This document shows positions 4,129 through 63,654 of a stretch of DNA of 64,000 nucleotides, piece after piece. A model generated the notes under the pieces. It saw only the letters and a program-made list of their open reading frames with translations. It did not search any database and was not told where the DNA came from. The position numbers and the translations under genes were made by a program. The stretch is from Patescibacteria group bacterium (GTDB lineage Bacteria; Patescibacteriota; Microgenomatia; UBA1400; UBA12028), in the NCBI GenBank assembly GCA_035479015.1, contig DATIJC010000020.1:4365-68364 (forward strand), read 5' to 3'. Positions within the stretch are counted from its first letter, which is position 1; every line of letters starts with the position of its first letter.

Positions 4129-5235
4129 ATGCCTCTCAGAGCCCGTGCCGTCTATCTTGCCCTCGCCAGCACGCTGCTCTTTTCAGCGTGTACGCAAAAC
4201 GGTCAAGTAGCTACGCTGGAACAAAAACCTTCGCTCCTGCAAGCATTGATCTCCACCGCCACGAAATCAGGTGCAACTCCAGTTCCAGAAAAATTACCTG
4301 CATACAAGAGTCCAGGACGTGAGTTTTCATTACCAGGTGCTAAATGGGTGCCTCAGAGTTACAACAACTGCGCGCCTGCCACTACATCTATGATCCTTCA
4401 GTACTTTGGTCATAGTGTCAGTCAAGTTGAGACCAAACAGGCTTTGCGAACTACCTCAGGTGATAAAAATGTATTTACTCCGGAAATTCAAACATATTTA
4501 AAAAATACCTATAACTTAGAGTCCAAGCTTGGATTTGGGGGCGATTTGCAAATGCTTAAAACGTTGTTTACGAACGGTTTTTATGTGATGGTAGAAGATT
4601 GGTTACATCCTGGTGAAGACATCGGACATAATACAATTATCCGGGGATTTGATGACGATAGGCAAGTGGTGATTTCCGATGACTCATTTATTGGCGCAGG
4701 AGTCACTTTTCCCTACGATGTTTTCGTAAATAATCAATGGAAGGCCTTTAACCGCGAATACTTGATCGTCTATACCAAGGATAAAGAGCCTCTGCTCAAA
4801 GCAATACTTGCCAGCCGCTTTGATGACAAGGCCATGTGGCAGCATGCGATCGATATCAATACGAGTGAGACAAAGAGTGCTCCAAACGATATGTATGCGT
4901 GGTTTAATCTCGGCAGTAGTTATTATGGGGCGGGAAGTTTCTCACAAGCAAAAACTGCCTTTGATAAAGCGAAAGCTATCGGGTGGCCCCGTCGTATGTT
5001 GTGGTACCAAATCCAGCCGATTCAAACTTACAACAAGGTTGGTGAATATCAAAAAGCGCTTGATTTAATTGCCGAAGGCCTGGCTGGTAATCAAGAATTT
5101 GCGGAGTTGCATTATGAGGCAGCTGTTGCCTATAAAGGACTTGGTCAGCTTGACCGAGCGCGTAGCGAAGTTCAATTAGCTCTTAGCTTTGCTCCCAAAT
5201 ATGCACCAGCGCTAGTTTTATCAAAACAGCTCTAA
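4129..5235 (+). CDS. lipoprotein with a peptidase C39-like (papain-fold) domain and C-terminal TPR repeats
   Basis: Lipobox LLFSAC. The motif Q..NNCAPATTSMILQYFGH matches the C39-like Cys block. TPR-like helices AWFNLGSSYYGAGSFSQAKTAFDKA and YEAAVAYKGLGQLDRARSEVQLAL. Confidence 0.65.
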   Translation: MPLRARAVYLALASTLLFSACTQNGQVATLEQKPSLLQALISTATKSGATPVPEKLPAYKSPGREFSLPGAKWVPQSYNNCAPATTSMILQYFGHSVSQVETKQALRTTSGDKNVFTPEIQTYLKNTYNLESKLGFGGDLQMLKTLFTNGFYVMVEDWLHPGEDIGHNTIIRGFDDDRQVVISDDSFIGAGVTFPYDVFVNNQWKAFNREYLIVYTKDKEPLLKAILASRFDDKAMWQHAIDINTSETKSAPNDMYAWFNLGSSYYGAGSFSQAKTAFDKAKAIGWPRRMLWYQIQPIQTYNKVGEYQKALDLIAEGLAGNQEFAELHYEAAVAYKGLGQLDRARSEVQLALSFAPKYAPALVLSKQL

Positions 5236-11271: not shown

Positions 11272-11367
11272 ATGTCATTCCTGCGAAGGCAGGAATCCAT
11301 GCAACAAAGAAAATACAAAAATGAGTTATTTATTGACTGGATCCCTGTCTACACAGGGATGACAGAC
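11272..11367. repeat. two-hairpin TGTCAT...ATGACA element, copy 2 (attcctgc-GAAG-gcaggaat at 11277-11296; 37-nt spacer; tccctgt-CTAC-acaggga at 11341-11358)
   Basis: Left hairpin is 25/26 identical to copy 1. The spacer is about 70 percent identical. The right hairpin stem differs from copy 1 by fully compensatory changes. The CTA of the loop is the stop codon of the upstream phosphoribosyltransferase gene (read as TAG on the minus strand). Confidence 0.65.
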
Positions 11368-11927
11368 TTATACCCCAACTTGGCTAGGTTCTCTACAATT
11401 TGAATTTTTGTATCTCCCTTTTTCCCCCAAATATCGGACAAAAGAGTGGTAGTCTCCCTGGTTTCCCAGGGCCAGATTATCCATGCCTTGGATGTGTGGG
11501 AGTAAAAGTCAGGAATGACTTTGGTCCAAGGTTTAATGACTAGGGTCGCCGTCTGAACCTCACTGGCTCCATGAAAGCCCAGATAAGATCTGGCCATGGC
11601 TAGGGTTTCTCCGCTATCGGCAATATCATCAATGATGAGCACTTTCTCTCCGCGGATTGAGATTGGCAGGGACTGGGTGATGACAGGAGTACGGTTGGTC
11701 GTAGCGATCCCAGAGTAAAATTCGATTTGAATCGAACTTAGTTCTTTCATGCCAAGCAGGTCTAGTATGGGTCTGGCTATCGTCGTACCGCCCTTGGCTA
11801 GTGCTATCACACGGTCAAAACTCTCCTTCTTGTCGATTATTTTTACTGCAAGTGTCTCTACACCTTGGCCAAAATCTTCCCAAGAGAATACTTCGTAAGT
11901 TTGATCGTGGATGAGGCTTCTGATCAT
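11349..11927 (-). CDS. purine phosphoribosyltransferase (Gpt/Hpt-like)
   Basis: PRPP loop VLIIDDIADSGETL. The C-terminal block WIIWPWE resembles Gpt WIEQPWD. The last 3 codons are supplied by repeat copy 2. Confidence 0.7.
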   Translation of the reverse strand: MIRSLIHDQTYEVFSWEDFGQGVETLAVKIIDKKESFDRVIALAKGGTTIARPILDLLGMKELSSIQIEFYSGIATTNRTPVITQSLPISIRGEKVLIIDDIADSGETLAMARSYLGFHGASEVQTATLVIKPWTKVIPDFYSHTSKAWIIWPWETRETTTLLSDIWGKKGDTKIQIVENLAKLGYKSVIPV

Positions 11928-52744: not shown

Positions 52745-52769
52745 TTGTCCCCGCGTAGGCGGGGATCCA
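52745..52769. repeat. left-type hairpin (TTGTC-ccccgc-GTAG-gcgggg-ATCCA) between GIY-YIG stop and ileS start
   Basis: Flanks TTGTC...ATCCA and loop GTAG match the left hairpins of the doublet elements. Confidence 0.55.
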
Positions 52770-52780
52770 CGTATTGATAG

Positions 52781-53071
52781 TTAGAATAAACTTAAATCTA
52801 TCCACTTAGGATTCATTTCCCAGATTCTTCTCAATTTCCATGCTCTATTCCATTTTTTCATTTGTTTTTCTTTAATCCTTGCTTCTCTTAAACTCCCGGT
52901 TTGTTCAAACCATACTAAAATATGAGTTTCATACTTTTTAGTAAAATTAGAGTTGTTATGCTTATGCTGATATATTCTTCTGTTCAAATCCTTTGTACTA
53001 CCAATATAGAGCGTTCCACATTTTTTATTTGCGAGCATGTAAACATATCCATATTCTTTTTCATCAACCAT
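52781..53071 (-). CDS. small GIY-YIG nuclease (UPF0213-like, 97 aa, start at MVDEKEYGYVYML)
   Basis: GYVYMLANKKCGTLYIGSTKDLNRRIYQH is a canonical GIY-YIG motif. The upstream 14 codons of the track ORF run through a hairpin and a terminator, so Met15 is preferred. Confidence 0.75.
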   Translation of the reverse strand: MVDEKEYGYVYMLANKKCGTLYIGSTKDLNRRIYQHKHNNSNFTKKYETHILVWFEQTGSLREARIKEKQMKKWNRAWKLRRIWEMNPKWIDLSLF

Positions 53072-53072
53072 A

Positions 53073-53104
53073 CTGGACCCCCGCCTTCGCGGGGGTGGAC
53101 ATAA
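53073..53104. repeat. right-type hairpin (CTGGA-cccccgc-CTTC-gcggggg-TGGACAT) 2 nt upstream of the GIY-YIG start
   Basis: Flanks CTGGA...TGGACA and the CTWC loop match the right hairpins of the doublet elements. Confidence 0.55.
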
Positions 53105-59457: not shown

Positions 59458-60511
59458 TTTTTAATCCCAACAATATTCCTATTCCAAATAATTCAGTTGC
59501 TAGTGCGGACCCTCCATAGGAAATGAAGGGGAGCGGTACGCCAGTAAGCGGGATCAGTGCAAACACAGACCCTAGGTTTACAATCGTTTGCGCACATATC
59601 CATGCTACTATTCCCCCACCCAGCAAAATCTCCTGTGCCCCGTCAAGATTTGACACAAATTCCGACATGCGGCGGAATAATGTTATATAGCCGATAATAA
59701 TGATACCACAGCCCAAGAAGCCAATCTCTTCGGCAATCACTGCGAAGATTGAATCCGTGGTCGCCTCTGGAATGTAGCGGTATTTTTGCAAAGATTTGCC
59801 CAAGCCTCGGCCAAACAAGCCACCGTTGCCAAGCGCCAGTGTGATCTGGTGGATGTGATAGGAACGCCCCAGTGGATCAGATTCTGGATCAAGATAGGTC
59901 TTCAACCGGTCCAGTCTATACGGCGCCACTACAATGATAATAAGTAGCGAGAAAAGGGCTGTGGCAAATAACCAAATAAAATGCCTAATTGGTTTGCCGC
60001 TCAAAAAATACATGCTGCCGGCAGTGATAGCGAGAATCAGCGCTGTTCCCAGATCAGGCTCTATTAATACGGTAATAAAGATGCCCGCCACTAATAGTAG
60101 AAAAGATAGAAATCGGCGGCTTTTTGAAAGCCAAACAGACAAGTACATAGTGAGGGCCAATTTCATCAGCTCTGAGGGCTGAATGGTAAAACCAGCGAGA
60201 CGTATCCAGCGGCGTGCACCACCGACACTTGTGCCGATATGAGGAATAAGTACGGCTAGCAGCAACACAAAAGAAAAAGAAAAAAAGAACGGTGCCATCT
60301 TAAACCAAAAACGTGTCGGGATCTTTGCGGCAACCAACATACCCATGAGACCGACTATTGACCACATGACCTGCTGGCGTAAAAAATATAATTTGTCTCC
60401 AAACTGGGTTGCAGCCTCGACAATAGAAACATCATAGACAAACAATATGCCAACTAAAACAAACAGGATGACGAGTCCGACTATTGGTGTTGTGAGAGAT
60501 TTTCTATGCAT
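59399..60511 (-). CDS. ftsW: SEDS-family FtsW (lipid II flippase/polymerase)
   Basis: SEDS blocks. Sits between murD and murG. Confidence 0.85.
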   Translation of the reverse strand: MHRKSLTTPIVGLVILFVLVGILFVYDVSIVEAATQFGDKLYFLRQQVMWSIVGLMGMLVAAKIPTRFWFKMAPFFFSFSFVLLLAVLIPHIGTSVGGARRWIRLAGFTIQPSELMKLALTMYLSVWLSKSRRFLSFLLLVAGIFITVLIEPDLGTALILAITAGSMYFLSGKPIRHFIWLFATALFSLLIIIVVAPYRLDRLKTYLDPESDPLGRSYHIHQITLALGNGGLFGRGLGKSLQKYRYIPEATTDSIFAVIAEEIGFLGCGIIIIGYITLFRRMSEFVSNLDGAQEILLGGGIVAWICAQTIVNLGSVFALIPLTGVPLPFISYGGSALATELFGIGILLGLKNEKRIYNGRAPDSRARRHR

Positions 60512-61758
60512 TGTCGGAACTGCGCGCTTCGGTCACGATAATCTATAAATATTCCAAAACTTGGGGCGCCGGCAGATAGCAATACTATTCCTTCGCCCAC
60601 CTCCTTATACGCTATTGCTACGGCCTGCTTCATTGAGTCAACATGAAAAACCTTTTGCTCAGCTTGTATCTGTTCCAGCTCATCCCCAATCCGCTTACCC
60701 GTCGATGGAAAACAGATGACAGTTTTCACGCTGGAATTTTTAATGCGCGCCGCAAGCTCGCTATAATCCTGGGCGCGTTCATGTCCGCCGACAATGAGGA
60801 CACTGACTTTGTCACCTAGAGTATCCAGCGCCGCGATCGTAGCCTGTGGGATCGTGGCGAGTGCATCATCATAAAATTCTATGCTGCCGACTGTCGCTAT
60901 TTTTTCCAGTCTTCCCGGCAATGGAGTGAAAGTTTGAGCGTGCTGCAAGACTTCTTCACGTGTGTATCCCAAAACACTTACTGCCGTTACAGCTAAATTG
61001 ATATTAGTTTGATGGACTGAAGGCGCTCTTTGCACAGTAATGATTTTTGCCCGTGAGGACACTAAGGGAATAATTGCCGGATCGTTGGGAACAACTGCAA
61101 TATCCTGCGCAGTTTGCAAGTCAAATACATGTTTCTTGGCTGCTCTATAGGCATCGTAATCTTTGTAATAATCCAAATGTTCTGGATATAGTGACGTGAA
61201 CACCGCTATGTGCACCGGCGCCGTAATGGTCTCACTTTGAAACGCTGAGAGTTCTAATACTACATGAGTGTTCACTTCGATTTGGTCAAGAATTTCAAGC
61301 ACTGGCAGGCCAATATTTCCTGCAAGGATTGCGCTCTGGCCCAAGCTGTTGAGTAAGTGCGCTATGAGAGCGCTGGTCGTACTTTTACCCTTGGTGCCCG
61401 TAACGGCGATCACCTGTTTGCCATATATTTGCGTGAACAGATCTACCTGCGAAGTAACTGTTCCCGCACGTCCATTTTTATAGTGCAGTTTCGACTGCGC
61501 TATTCCCGGGGTTTTAAAAACTACGTCAAATGGTGGGAGTAAGAATATCCCCAGAGAGTATTTTAGGTTAATGTCATTATCATGCAGATGAATAAGCGTT
61601 GGTTCCAATTTTTTGTCCTCATCAAAAATCCAGATCGGAACTTGTGGAAAGAAGTTGCGGATGAATCGATATGTACTTTGTCCCTCACGGCCAAATCCAA
61701 CGATTGCAATAGATTTTGCACTGTGTAGCCAAGATGGTAATCTTTTCAAATCAAACAT
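60481..61758 (-). CDS. murD: UDP-N-acetylmuramoylalanine-D-glutamate ligase
   Basis: IAVTGTKGKSTT P-loop and Mur ligase domains. Confidence 0.9.
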   Translation of the reverse strand: MFDLKRLPSWLHSAKSIAIVGFGREGQSTYRFIRNFFPQVPIWIFDEDKKLEPTLIHLHDNDINLKYSLGIFLLPPFDVVFKTPGIAQSKLHYKNGRAGTVTSQVDLFTQIYGKQVIAVTGTKGKSTTSALIAHLLNSLGQSAILAGNIGLPVLEILDQIEVNTHVVLELSAFQSETITAPVHIAVFTSLYPEHLDYYKDYDAYRAAKKHVFDLQTAQDIAVVPNDPAIIPLVSSRAKIITVQRAPSVHQTNINLAVTAVSVLGYTREEVLQHAQTFTPLPGRLEKIATVGSIEFYDDALATIPQATIAALDTLGDKVSVLIVGGHERAQDYSELAARIKNSSVKTVICFPSTGKRIGDELEQIQAEQKVFHVDSMKQAVAIAYKEVGEGIVLLSAGAPSFGIFIDYRDRSAQFRQCIENLSQHQ

Positions 61759-61769
61759 ATGGTTTCATC

Positions 61770-61876
61770 TTGTCATCTTGAGCATCCTGGTAATCCAGGA
61801 GGTCGAAAGATAGTTTGTGCGATTAAAACTATCCATTCGACTGCCAGGAATACCTGGCGCGCTCAGGATGACAAAC
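61770..61876. repeat. two-hairpin TTGTCAT...ATGACAA element, copy 3 (tcctgg-TAAT-ccagga at 61785-61800; gccagg-AATA-cctggc at 61844-61859)
   Basis: Terminal 14-nt inverted repeat TTGTCATCTTGAGC / GCTCAGGATGACAA with 13/14 matching. Same architecture as copies 1 and 2 but with different stems. Includes the TGA stop of the PP-loop gene. Confidence 0.55.
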
Positions 61877-63218
61877 TCCTTTTAAGTATGGTCAAAAACT
61901 GTGATGGCAATTCGTGTTCATTGGAGAATTGTTTTAAAATCATTTCTGAATTTTCACGAAGCATGCTTTCATTTTCACGGATCCATTTTTCATAGTGCGT
62001 GAAAACAAGCGGCTGGTTTTTCCCTTCGCGCTTTTTCCATCCCAGATAAGCGGCGGCTCCTGACTCTAGCACAGTTCCCACGCACTCAAATGGCTTGTAT
62101 GGCGTAAACCCAAGTAGTTCTTCCATAATGGGAATATTTTTTTCGGCGTTTAGTGGATTTTTTCCCCAAATCTTGAAGATCACGTCATCATCCACAAATG
62201 CTGAAAGCAACAATGCCACAAACACACACTTAGGACACTCTCCACACCAAGCGTTGGTTTTCTGTCCGCGATTACAGCTCTTAAATTGTCTAAAGTATTC
62301 TTTGTAATTTGAAAAAAGCTTCACTATCTGTAATTCATAGAGCGGCCGCATAAAACTAAAATATTCTGGCACACCTGCCATCGAATGCTCTACGTAGTTT
62401 TTAAAATCTTTTTCAAACTCAAACGTCTTTGAGTACTGATGATTGACTGGAATTCCTTCATATTGTGCAGTCGGCTCGTTGGCACTACCTTCGTTGGAGA
62501 GCACGATATACTTTGAACCCGCTAGATAGCCCACTAAGAGTGTTTCAAATGCAAGAACTGATGAAAACGGTGTATGGCCATTGGGATGACCAGTTCTGTT
62601 GAGCTCAAATAGATGGGGATCCAGAATCCGTTTGCCAACATAATCTTTTTCTAATTTATGAAGTTCGGCGTAGGTTTGTATGACATTTTCACTTGCACCC
62701 ACATGACCTGAGTATGTAGAAATTTTAAAATCATGTTTGCTTATTAGTTCCAGACTGACTACCGAGTCTTTGCCACCACCGACTGGAACAAGCACACTCG
62801 ATTCGTCTAAAGAGCCGTTAAATTTCACGGAGGTATCTTCATGGCTTTGACTCACGATTTCAGTTTGAAAAGGTTTGAAATGATTCATGAAGAAAAATTC
62901 ACCCATGCCAAAGAAAAACAATTTCTGCCAAAATTTTGTTTGTTCACTATCGAGTTTCCCAGCTTTGATCACGATCTTTGGCGAACAAAAAGCTTTCCAA
63001 TATGATGGGATCTCAGCCATGCCAATATGAAAGGCTAGTCGTTTAATTGCCTCCTTGTTTTCATCGGCAACTTTGGCATTCTCTAGGATGTATTTAGAGA
63101 CAAAACTTTGCTCTCCACATGAGAAGTAAAACCTCAGCTCCAGATCAGCCCCAAAATCTACTTCCGTCTTTTCAAACACGAACTCGGGATACGTAGTTTG
63201 TAGATCATCAAGATTCAT
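61863..63218 (-). CDS. PP-loop superfamily ATP pyrophosphatase-like protein (SGGKDS) with a C-terminal CGECPKC motif; function unknown
   Basis: VPVGGGKDSVVSLELI PP-loop at about residue 145. CxxCxxC near residue 330. Confidence 0.55.
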   Translation of the reverse strand: MNLDDLQTTYPEFVFEKTEVDFGADLELRFYFSCGEQSFVSKYILENAKVADENKEAIKRLAFHIGMAEIPSYWKAFCSPKIVIKAGKLDSEQTKFWQKLFFFGMGEFFFMNHFKPFQTEIVSQSHEDTSVKFNGSLDESSVLVPVGGGKDSVVSLELISKHDFKISTYSGHVGASENVIQTYAELHKLEKDYVGKRILDPHLFELNRTGHPNGHTPFSSVLAFETLLVGYLAGSKYIVLSNEGSANEPTAQYEGIPVNHQYSKTFEFEKDFKNYVEHSMAGVPEYFSFMRPLYELQIVKLFSNYKEYFRQFKSCNRGQKTNAWCGECPKCVFVALLLSAFVDDDVIFKIWGKNPLNAEKNIPIMEELLGFTPYKPFECVGTVLESGAAAYLGWKKREGKNQPLVFTHYEKWIRENESMLRENSEMILKQFSNEHELPSQFLTILKRSLSS

Positions 63219-63654
63219 TCTTACCTTCCGAAGAAATTACTTTTGCCGGGGCGGGCTTGAGTTCCGTATAACGCCACCATTTTGGAACAAATTTAAGCAA
63301 TACGCTATCAGCAAGATCCTTATACTTTTCCGATCCTTTAAATTTCTCACTATATACTCTCCAGGCTTCATCCAACTGATCTTCTTTAGTAAGTATCCGT
63401 ACCTCACCTTCCATTTGTAGTGTCACCCACTCCTCTTCACTAAACCCAATGACGAGGGATGCTGGGGTGCTCCCGCTATTTATAAGCTTCTGATTTTTAC
63501 GGCTCTCTTTATCTGTCATGAAGATAAAATAGAAGGATGAAAATGATGCGCTATAGTGCAGGGTGCTACTGTGTGGAGTTCCATCCAACAACATAGTAGT
63601 CAGCACACTTATTCGGTGCTTGGTGACAAAATCAATAATTTTTTTATCCCTCAT
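63208..63654 (-). CDS. pyridoxamine 5'-phosphate oxidase-like FMN-binding split-barrel protein
   Basis: N-terminal ISVLTTMLLDGTPHSSTLHY pattern typical of the PNPOx-like family. Confidence 0.55.
   Translation of the reverse strand: MRDKKIIDFVTKHRISVLTTMLLDGTPHSSTLHYSASFSSFYFIFMTDKESRKNQKLINSGSTPASLVIGFSEEEWVTLQMEGEVRILTKEDQLDEAWRVYSEKFKGSEKYKDLADSVLLKFVPKWWRYTELKPAPAKVISSEGKNES

Follow-up and report, generated by a model that had tools for sequence, protein, structure and literature searches.

Why are murL and murD, two adjoining genes of the dcw operon that abut or overlap in related genomes, separated by a hairpin-rich spacer of 104 nt in contig DATIJC010000020.1 of a Patescibacteria group bacterium? 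The stretch analysed here (hereafter the window) covers 64,000 nt of this contig, and an earlier note, made from its letters, had described the spacer as the third copy of a hairpin-doublet element, a diverged subfamily of two others in the same stretch (copies 1 and 2). The observation is real, and the idea that the spacer element belongs, in diverged form, to the repeat super-family of copies 1 and 2 turned out to be essentially right. Very probably the element, copy 3, consists of two Ssn-related hairpin motifs set head to head with no gene between them, the miniature form of an SRM-ssn-SRM cassette. In such cassettes, motifs named NTS in Neisseria and SRM in general flank ssnA, a gene for a 94-aa single-domain GIY-YIG protein of the cd10448 family (Chenal 2025, PMC11893778). 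The element is not of a new kind, because repeats of this sort were described in 2013 (PMC3733652) and again in 2025 (PMC11893778). What is new here is the breadth of the TGTCATCCTGAGC sub-family, its extra-hairpin variant with a four-way junction, and what is most likely a clean insertion at a conserved gene junction.

The repeat between murL and murD

The element proper, TGTCAT...ATGACA, extends from 61771 to 61873 (103 bp; coordinates are those of the window, with a strand where one applies) and is a head-to-head dimer of two TGTC-tagged hairpin motifs. When an extra T/A pair is counted it measures 105 bp (61770-61874); the 107 bp proposed earlier (61770-61876) captured the element and placed its end 2 nt past the repeat. 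The boundary is set by comparison: in 132 related elements conservation begins and ends exactly at TGTCAT/ATGACA. The two arms, TTGTCATCTTGAGC at 61770-61783 and GCTCAGGATGACAA at 61861-61874, are each 14 nt long with 77 nt between them, and 13 of 14 positions (93%) are complementary; the termini had been called perfect, and the sole mismatch is C/T. The arrangement TGTCAT-N90-120-ATGACA occurs twice in the window, against 0.18 occurrences expected.

The tagged-hairpin scan and the family comparison resolve each arm as a hairpin of its own. In the plus-strand arm (61771-61811) the tag TGTC (61771-61774) is followed by the stem ATCTT (61775-61779), which pairs with AAGAT (61807-61811), a paired double change relative to ATCCT/AGGAT. 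This stem encloses GAGC, an inserted hairpin and GGTCGA, and the next base after the palindrome is A, not C. In the minus-strand arm (61831-61873) TGTC (61873-61870) precedes ATCCT (61869-61865), whose closing half is imperfect (A-T-GGAT, with GGAT at 61834-61831), leaving a base stem of only 4 bp (ATCC...GGAT) and then a T.T mismatch; its loop consists of GAGCG, an inserted hairpin and AGTCGA, and here too the base after the palindrome is A. The inserted apical hairpins, tcctgg-TAAT-ccagga at 61785-61800 in the plus arm and gccagg-AATA-cctggc at 61843-61858 in the minus arm, are the two short hairpins already pointed out in the earlier note. The AT-rich core that it described is a central hairpin, GATAGTTT-9 nt-AAACTATC (61809-61833, 8/8 complementary), the variable centre of the element. 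Fold prediction gives a four-way junction for either strand, with -54.2 kcal/mol (z -7.4) for the minus strand as RNA, -58.3 kcal/mol (z -7.5) for the plus strand as RNA and -32.2 kcal/mol (z -8.25) for the minus strand as single-stranded DNA; in each of the three folds none of 200 shuffles was as stable.

The genes of the minus strand follow in the order mraY, PNPOx-like gene, murL, murD, ftsW, murG. The gene upstream of the element, previously taken for a PP-loop gene, is murL (61863-63218, minus), a member of the UDP-MurNAc-L-Ala-L-Glu epimerase family with the Pfam domains MurL_N and MurL_epimerase_C. Downstream lies murD (60481-61758, minus), 104 nt from murL, and the element fills this gap. 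As had been noticed, the TGA stop of murL (61863-61865, minus) is inside the right arm; the element thus encodes the last three MurL residues, L-S-S, and the stop. The C-terminus of MurL aligns with those of relatives through ...SQFLTILKRS, after which the window continues with LSS-stop from the repeat.

Inspection of the mraY-murD interval in three syntenic relatives (murA-mraY-murL-murD-ftsW), a check that the earlier note had proposed, gave murL/murD spacings of +1, -4 and -14 nt versus 104 nt in the window, with no spacer in any of them. Judging from these spacings, the element was most likely inserted at the murL-murD junction, because the three closest syntenic relatives have the two genes abutting or overlapping. 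In-silico removal of exactly 61771-61873 leaves AGT-TAG, a stop at the expected place, 10 nt before the murD ATG, which is suggestive of insertion without proving it. No target-site duplication was found in the sequence flanking the element. Immediately 5' of the element is a Shine-Dalgarno-like AAAGGAG (61876-61882, minus). Its distance to the murD ATG, now about 115 nt, would shrink to about 14 nt were the element absent, and folding of the RNA, by joining the two ends of the element, would place it near the start codon again.

A sub-family with the same termini in many phyla

Sub-family B, as we call the repeats of the form TGTCATCCTGAGCG...GAAGGAYC with termini TGTCATCCTGAGC...GCTCAGGATGACA, was delimited by scanning for TGTCATCNTGAGC-N62-92-GCTCANGATGACA in one genome per species (596 Gb). 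With a gap of 62-92 nt, at least 132 further elements sharing the exact 13-nt termini were found at at least 120 genome loci (numbered with L), and the same termini are present in 6 viral contigs. By our estimate about 0.1 would be expected by chance (24 fixed bases, 31 gap lengths, 2 x 596 Gb, uniform composition). Chance resemblance of short termini, with no further members, was the outcome that the earlier note had named as fatal to its claim; the shared termini are not due to chance, because at least 132 further elements occur at at least 120 loci in many bacterial phyla. The hosts include Hymenobacter and other Bacteroidota, Acidobacteriota, Chloroflexota, Planctomycetota, Gemmatimonadota and Verrucomicrobiota, and also Clostridia, Firmicutes-type metagenome-assembled genomes (MAGs), Spirochaetes (Treponemataceae), a Bifidobacterium, Proteobacteria and Patescibacteria.

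In the 132 elements the common form is TGTC-ATCCT-GAGCG(N)AGCGA-AGGAY-C, then a variable, unconserved centre, then the mirror image. The flanks are mostly Y at position -1 and mostly R at position +1 and are otherwise unrelated between loci, and matches of k = 3-9 between the two flanks, as a target-site duplication would leave them, stand at chance level in the 132 elements. About two thirds of the arms have the loop GAGCGNAGCGA (10-12 nt), and the closing pentamer is followed by C in 235 of 254 arms (92%). Longer loops are found in 73 of the 254, several of them of the type GAGCG-[hairpin of arbitrary sequence]-AGTCGA; inserted apical hairpins with unrelated stems occur, for instance, at L016, L089, L101, L197 and L180. 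Among 131 distinct elements, 99 are predicted to fold as one long hairpin, 27 as two hairpins and 4 as a four-way junction like that of copy 3. By its sequence copy 3 belongs to sub-family B, in the rarer variant with a hairpin added in each arm, because its arms read GAGCG-CGCCAGGTATTCCTGGC-AGTCGA on one side and GAGC-ATCCTGGTAATCCAGGAG-GTCGA on the other. The 64-kb window yielded no further arm of sub-family B, and copy 3 stands alone there.

How then is copy 3 related to copies 1 (419-510) and 2 (11273-11364)? These are of one type, with a TGTC tag, an 8-bp stem starting with AT, a 4-nt loop and a CCA tail, and on sequence criteria they are textbook CGTC-1/NTS-like head-to-head dimers, while copy 3 represents a different and very widespread sub-family. 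The kinship suggested in the earlier note holds in that all three copies are head-to-head dimers of YGTC-tagged hairpins with AT-starting stems. The equivalence of its short hairpins with those of copies 1 and 2 does not: their counterpart in copy 3 is the larger arm hairpin ATCYT...ARGAT placed right after TGTC, and the short ones are apical insertions in it. Likewise, the "diverged subfamily" is a separate sub-family, spread across phyla, rather than a local offshoot of copies 1 and 2. At all three sites of the window the repeats reshape gene ends. A phosphoribosyltransferase gene (11349-11927, minus) takes its last five codons and its TAG stop from copy 2, and copy 1 abuts the atpA stop (514-516) and offers at its other end an alternative ATG (424) to the downstream open reading frame (ORF).

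Some sub-family B loci show further arrangements at their edges. "Stuttered" termini, that is, partial or complete extra TGTCAT(C) ends 12-40 nt outside the element, were seen in the window at 407-412 and at 61765-61780, where an 8-nt tandem duplication on the plus strand (TCATCTTG followed directly by TCATCTTG) crosses the boundary of copy 3, and also at L011, L026, L031, L035, L039, L042, L052, L064, L067, L073, L081, L091 and L099. At three of these loci (L042, L064 and L067) both sides carry the duplication, symmetrically. Within 40 nt outside an arm, GTCAT occurs in 37 of 258 outer flanks versus 3 of 248 control stretches. Such termini may come from nested insertions, from slippage or from repair after Ssn nicking.

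About 20 of the 132 elements have at least 4 complementary flank bases, and up to 30, and lie inside longer palindromes (for instance at L019, L021, L028, L034, L043, L044, L047, L087, L108 and L121). We considered that these elements had been inserted into terminator loops, as the complementary flanks would allow; against this, the outer arms in Hymenobacter, GT[AG]AAAA[CG]... and ...[CG]TTTT[CT]AC, resemble each other and look like part of a longer composite repeat. Such likeness points to a composite repeat specific to the genus, or to arms resembling bidirectional terminators. At L075 (6308-7225, an Eremiobacterota MAG) a tandem array holds at least 6 units of 136 bp, each made of a 102-103-nt element and a 33-nt spacer. 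A CRISPR-like array was rejected there, the 33-nt "spacers" being identical, as in a plain 136-bp tandem duplication.

Single-domain GIY-YIG genes between tagged hairpins

Which gene, if any, goes with these repeats? When the ORFs of the at least 120 loci were clustered, one gene family recurrently adjoined the elements among the matches listed, encoding a GIY-YIG domain protein of about 90-100 aa, 22-66 nt from the scanned-for elements; no RAYT-like family recurred among the same ORFs. At L008 and L077 a complete short element precedes the GIY-YIG gene and a lone right arm follows it, and at L174, L178, L180 and L197 sub-family B arms flank the gene, with an inserted hairpin at L180 and L197. 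In all six loci the inverted repeats of the sub-family thus surround a single-domain GIY-YIG gene; copy 3 itself is gene-less.

As a control for the bias of starting from the repeats, 80 metagenome loci were fetched by protein similarity alone, with an alignment of three closer GIY-YIG proteins, and the flanks were counted in the 58 that had at least 250 nt on both sides. An inward-facing YGTC-tagged hairpin was present upstream of the gene in 34 of the 58 loci and downstream in 29, compared with 9 and 13, respectively, for hairpins in the wrong orientation; 23 loci had inward-facing hairpins on both sides. The stems vary by lineage with their pairing kept (ATCCT/AGGAT, ATTTC/GAAAT, ATCCC/GGGAT, ATTCC/GGAAT, ATGCC/GGCAT, ATCTC/GAGAT), and across lineages the tag, the AT at the start of the stem and the C that follows the hairpin do not change.

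The window holds one such cassette, at 52745-53098 on the minus strand, between upstream genes and ileS. Its ORF (52781-53071, 96 aa) matches Pfam GIY-YIG over residues 7-80 (E 1.1e-14). The upstream hairpin reads TGTCC-ACCCCCGC-GAAG-GCGGGGGT-CCAG and the downstream one, inverted, TGGAT-CCCCGC-CTAC-GCGGGG-ACA; they have GAAG and CTAC loops and belong to the type of copies 1 and 2. Both depart from the canonical TGTC-AT, the upstream arm with TGTCC-A... and the downstream arm with TGTC-CCCCGC, without the 5' AT. In the ORF, Y11, Y22 and E68 are spaced by 11 and 46 residues versus 11 and 47 in Nm SsnA (Y6, Y17 and E64; PMC11893778), from which we infer that the catalytic spacing of the putative nuclease agrees with that of SsnA. 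The label "YhbQ/Slx1-like" found no support and was dropped for the nuclease, the published family being cd10448; a literature search on GIY-YIG together with MITEs or inverted repeats, and on YhbQ/UPF0213/COG2827, returned nothing relevant.

The GIY-YIG gene family was also met in other settings. At L066 (5850-6480, Hymenobacter aerophilus) a GIY-YIG gene lies between copies of a third type of motif, TGTCATTGCGAG(C/G)...GCAATC, of which two left arms and one right arm are present, and the same genome also has a sub-family B element (4630-4718). Several motif families therefore coexist in one genome. At L057 (650-1560, Flavobacterium soyae) two near-identical GIY-YIG genes, without TGTC hairpins, are interleaved with tRNA sequence (Rfam 31.7 bits), namely one full gene and two truncated tRNA-like copies, possibly a different embedding of the family through tRNA-targeted duplication.

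Origin of the element, alternatives and known systems

The properties of the Ssn nucleases offer a framework for reading copy 3. For the enzymes tested, the cognate hairpin is bound in single-stranded DNA only, and double-stranded DNA and RNA are ignored; cutting requires GTC just 5' of the palindrome and gives a nick a few nt upstream of the hairpin; the C just 3' of the palindrome is the nucleotide most crucial for binding; and changing the stem sequence with the hairpin kept abolishes activity (PMC11893778). In the scenario that we favour, copy 3 would have entered the murL-murD junction as a discrete unit, without target duplication, replacing the last codons and the stop of murL. Either strand, once unwound, would present a hairpin with its TGTC tag or, with both arms paired, a four-way junction. 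Such a tagged hairpin is what a cognate Ssn would be predicted to recognise, and the element would thus act, if at all, while the DNA is single-stranded. Copy 3 as it now stands would be a decayed relic tolerated within the transcript of the dcw operon. By its sequence it is probably inert and no longer a good Ssn substrate, because A and not C follows both palindromes, the base stem of one arm is weakened and the window has no cognate ssn gene. It would also be an orphan, because the ssn gene of the window has different stems, and a change of stem abolishes Ssn activity (PMC11893778).

Several points weigh against reading copy 3 as an inserted, Ssn-related miniature. The C after the palindrome, present in 92% of sub-family B arms, is replaced by A in both of its arms (AAGAT-A; GGAT-A). 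No cognate ssn gene was found in the 64-kb window, the only ssn gene having different stems, and none adjoins copy 3. The published SRM pattern, HGTCWYN(0-2)YYVSBRHN(0-5)WNVSBRGN(0-2)RNCYNB, matches neither arm, nor the sub-family B consensus (ATCCT-GAGCGNAGCGA-AGGAY), nor any other place in the window; the pattern derives from 29 genomes and covers less than the SRM concept does. The specificity of Ssn nucleases for sub-family B would be extrapolated from four enzymes in one paper. The GIY-YIG protein of the window gave no match in a PDB sequence search and only sub-threshold similarity to group-I-intron endonucleases in NCBIfam, and its membership of cd10448 is putative. The authors who likened NTS-ssnA-NTS to an insertion sequence did not show mobility (PMC11893778). 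Finally, the relatives used as empty sites are only 48-54% identical in MurL (the best match is a Woesebacteria MAG), and insertion is therefore a reading across distant genomes rather than from a filled/empty allele pair. No exact pair of this kind was found among the contigs with identical MurD, all of which also carry the element, or among the nearest MurL relatives (at most 54% identical).

A broader proposition, for which we claim no more than tentative standing, is that SRM-ssn-SRM cassettes and gene-less dimers together form a class of mobile DNA whose movement, by way of single-stranded intermediates, uses a GIY-YIG nuclease instead of an HUH, DDE or recombinase enzyme. If this were true, the murL-murD copy would provide an example of clean insertion, with sharp TGTCAT/ATGACA boundaries, no target duplication and an abutting gene pair split. 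The identity of the termini across phyla, the stuttered or nested termini and the copies within longer palindromes would then be footprints of the mechanism, and loci such as murL-murD would be a natural place in which to read the footprint of insertion.

Could copy 3 be active today, as a non-autonomous transposon (the analogue of a MITE or a REPIN) mobilised in trans by an Ssn encoded elsewhere in the genome? The sharp boundaries without target-site duplication would suit such an element, as would its evident insertion at murL-murD, the near-identical termini across phyla and in 6 viral contigs, the enrichment of nested and stuttered termini, and the resemblance of the SRM-ssn-SRM layout to an insertion sequence remarked upon by the authors of PMC11893778. 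However, neither arm has the binding-critical C, and the base stem of one is weakened; the 64-kb window contains a single sub-family B copy and no cognate ssn gene; and only nicking, never strand-joining or transposition, has been demonstrated for any Ssn. We consider present activity unlikely.

The alternative that copy 3 is a functional RNA of the murL-murD transcript, whether a processing site, a barrier to 3'-exonucleases or a device that brings AAAGGAG to the murD start, is improbable in our view. Lying within an operon, the element is presumably transcribed; its minus-strand RNA fold is highly stable (z -7.4); and REP-type repeats have been proposed as RNA elements (PMC3733652). However, the relatives do without it, with murL and murD abutting, there is no U-tract, and RNA is not bound by Ssn (PMC11893778). 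Neither an intrinsic terminator (GC-rich hairpin followed by a T-run) nor a promoter signature was found on either strand at 61500-62100. Moreover, the conserved parts are equal on both strands and the centre varies freely, as is expected of a repeat acting at the DNA level. An RNA-level effect is possible as a by-product of the insertion. A known ribozyme or noncoding RNA was dropped as a candidate, Rfam giving only tRNAs and no family matching the element in the window and 15 related loci, and a hammerhead-like reading of CUGA...GAA fails by inspection at core positions.

A classical MITE derived from an insertion sequence with a DDE transposase, or a REPIN mobilised by a RAYT, is very improbable and was rejected on target-site duplication, tag and partner gene: the terminal inverted repeats TG...CA, the length of about 100 bp, the intergenic position and the many copies in other genomes would fit, but target-site duplications are absent (k = 3-9 counts at chance level), the tag is TGTC and not GTAG, no transposase gene flanked by CGTC repeats was found in 2013 (PMC3733652), and the only gene family that recurrently adjoins the elements among the matches listed is GIY-YIG.

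For the annotation of the window, the preferred reading, an inserted pair of Ssn-related hairpins, means that the 104-nt spacer is a repeat of selfish type and not a regulatory site of the cell-division cluster. Repeats of this type create spurious ORFs and altered gene ends, which is relevant to the annotation of MAGs. Elsewhere in the cluster, the PNPOx-like gene (Pfam PNPOx_N; 63208-63654, minus) between mraY and murL is absent from that place in 2 of the 3 syntenic relatives (L203 and the P0005 locus), and at L204 its position is taken by an unrelated 83-aa ORF on the opposite strand. The murL-murD pair (60481-63218, minus) implies a MurD2/MurL route in an apparently Patescibacteria-like organism. 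This route is known from Xanthomonas, where L-Glu is ligated and then epimerised. MurL homologues are numerous, with 4901 at E <= 1e-30 among the candidates scored.

How does the element compare with repeats already described? With the REPIN/RAYT system (PMC3116915; Nunvar 2010; Ton-Hoang 2012) it shares its logic, with a short tagged hairpin, inverted doublets that form a long hairpin, a single-copy gene flanked by the same motifs and recognition as single-stranded DNA. The tag and the enzyme differ, GTAG and an HUH Y1 transposase there versus TGTC and a GIY-YIG nuclease here, and REPIN families are lineage-specific, whereas sub-family B termini are identical across phyla.

The CGTC-tagged REPs, a super-family that includes dRS3 of Neisseria and RPE-4 and RPE-6 of Rickettsia, are closer. 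They have an unpaired terminal tag, CGTC, often TGTC and also CCTC, stems of 8-9 bp starting with AT, loops of 4-5 nt and a CCA tail, they occur mostly as head-to-head dimers, and no transposase gene flanked by them was found (PMC3733652). Copies 1 and 2 have all of these features (8-bp stem, 4-nt loop, CCA tail). Copy 3 agrees in the TGTC tag of both arms, the AT start of the stem, the head-to-head arrangement with the tags outward and the position at a gene end. It differs in its base stem of 4-5 bp, its structured loop of 27-30 nt and its tail AGT instead of CCA; it also falls outside the four families defined in PMC3733652, at a time (2013) when the associated enzyme was unknown. A literature search with the string GTCATCCTGAGC returned only unrelated primer matches, and the sequence of sub-family B was not found spelled out in the papers searched.

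The nearest relatives are the SRM/NTS motifs (PMC11893778). The difference in form lies in the loop of copy 3, of 27-30 nt with a hairpin of its own, versus 3-4 nt in NTS. Since sub-family B escapes the published SRM pattern, the current counts of Ssn-associated repeats are probably underestimates. The likenesses are several: in both arms of copy 3 a YGTC tag immediately precedes the hairpin, the stem of which begins with AT; these arms are hairpin-forming semi-palindromes of about 20-50 nt; gene-less copies are dispersed and often paired; and the sub-family of copy 3 flanks single-domain GIY-YIG genes of about 90-100 aa as inward inverted repeats. Of the published ssn homologues, 71% lie near at least one SRM and 42% between two (PMC11893778); the GIY-YIG genes counted here, with 59% flanked upstream and 40% on both sides, come near to these values.

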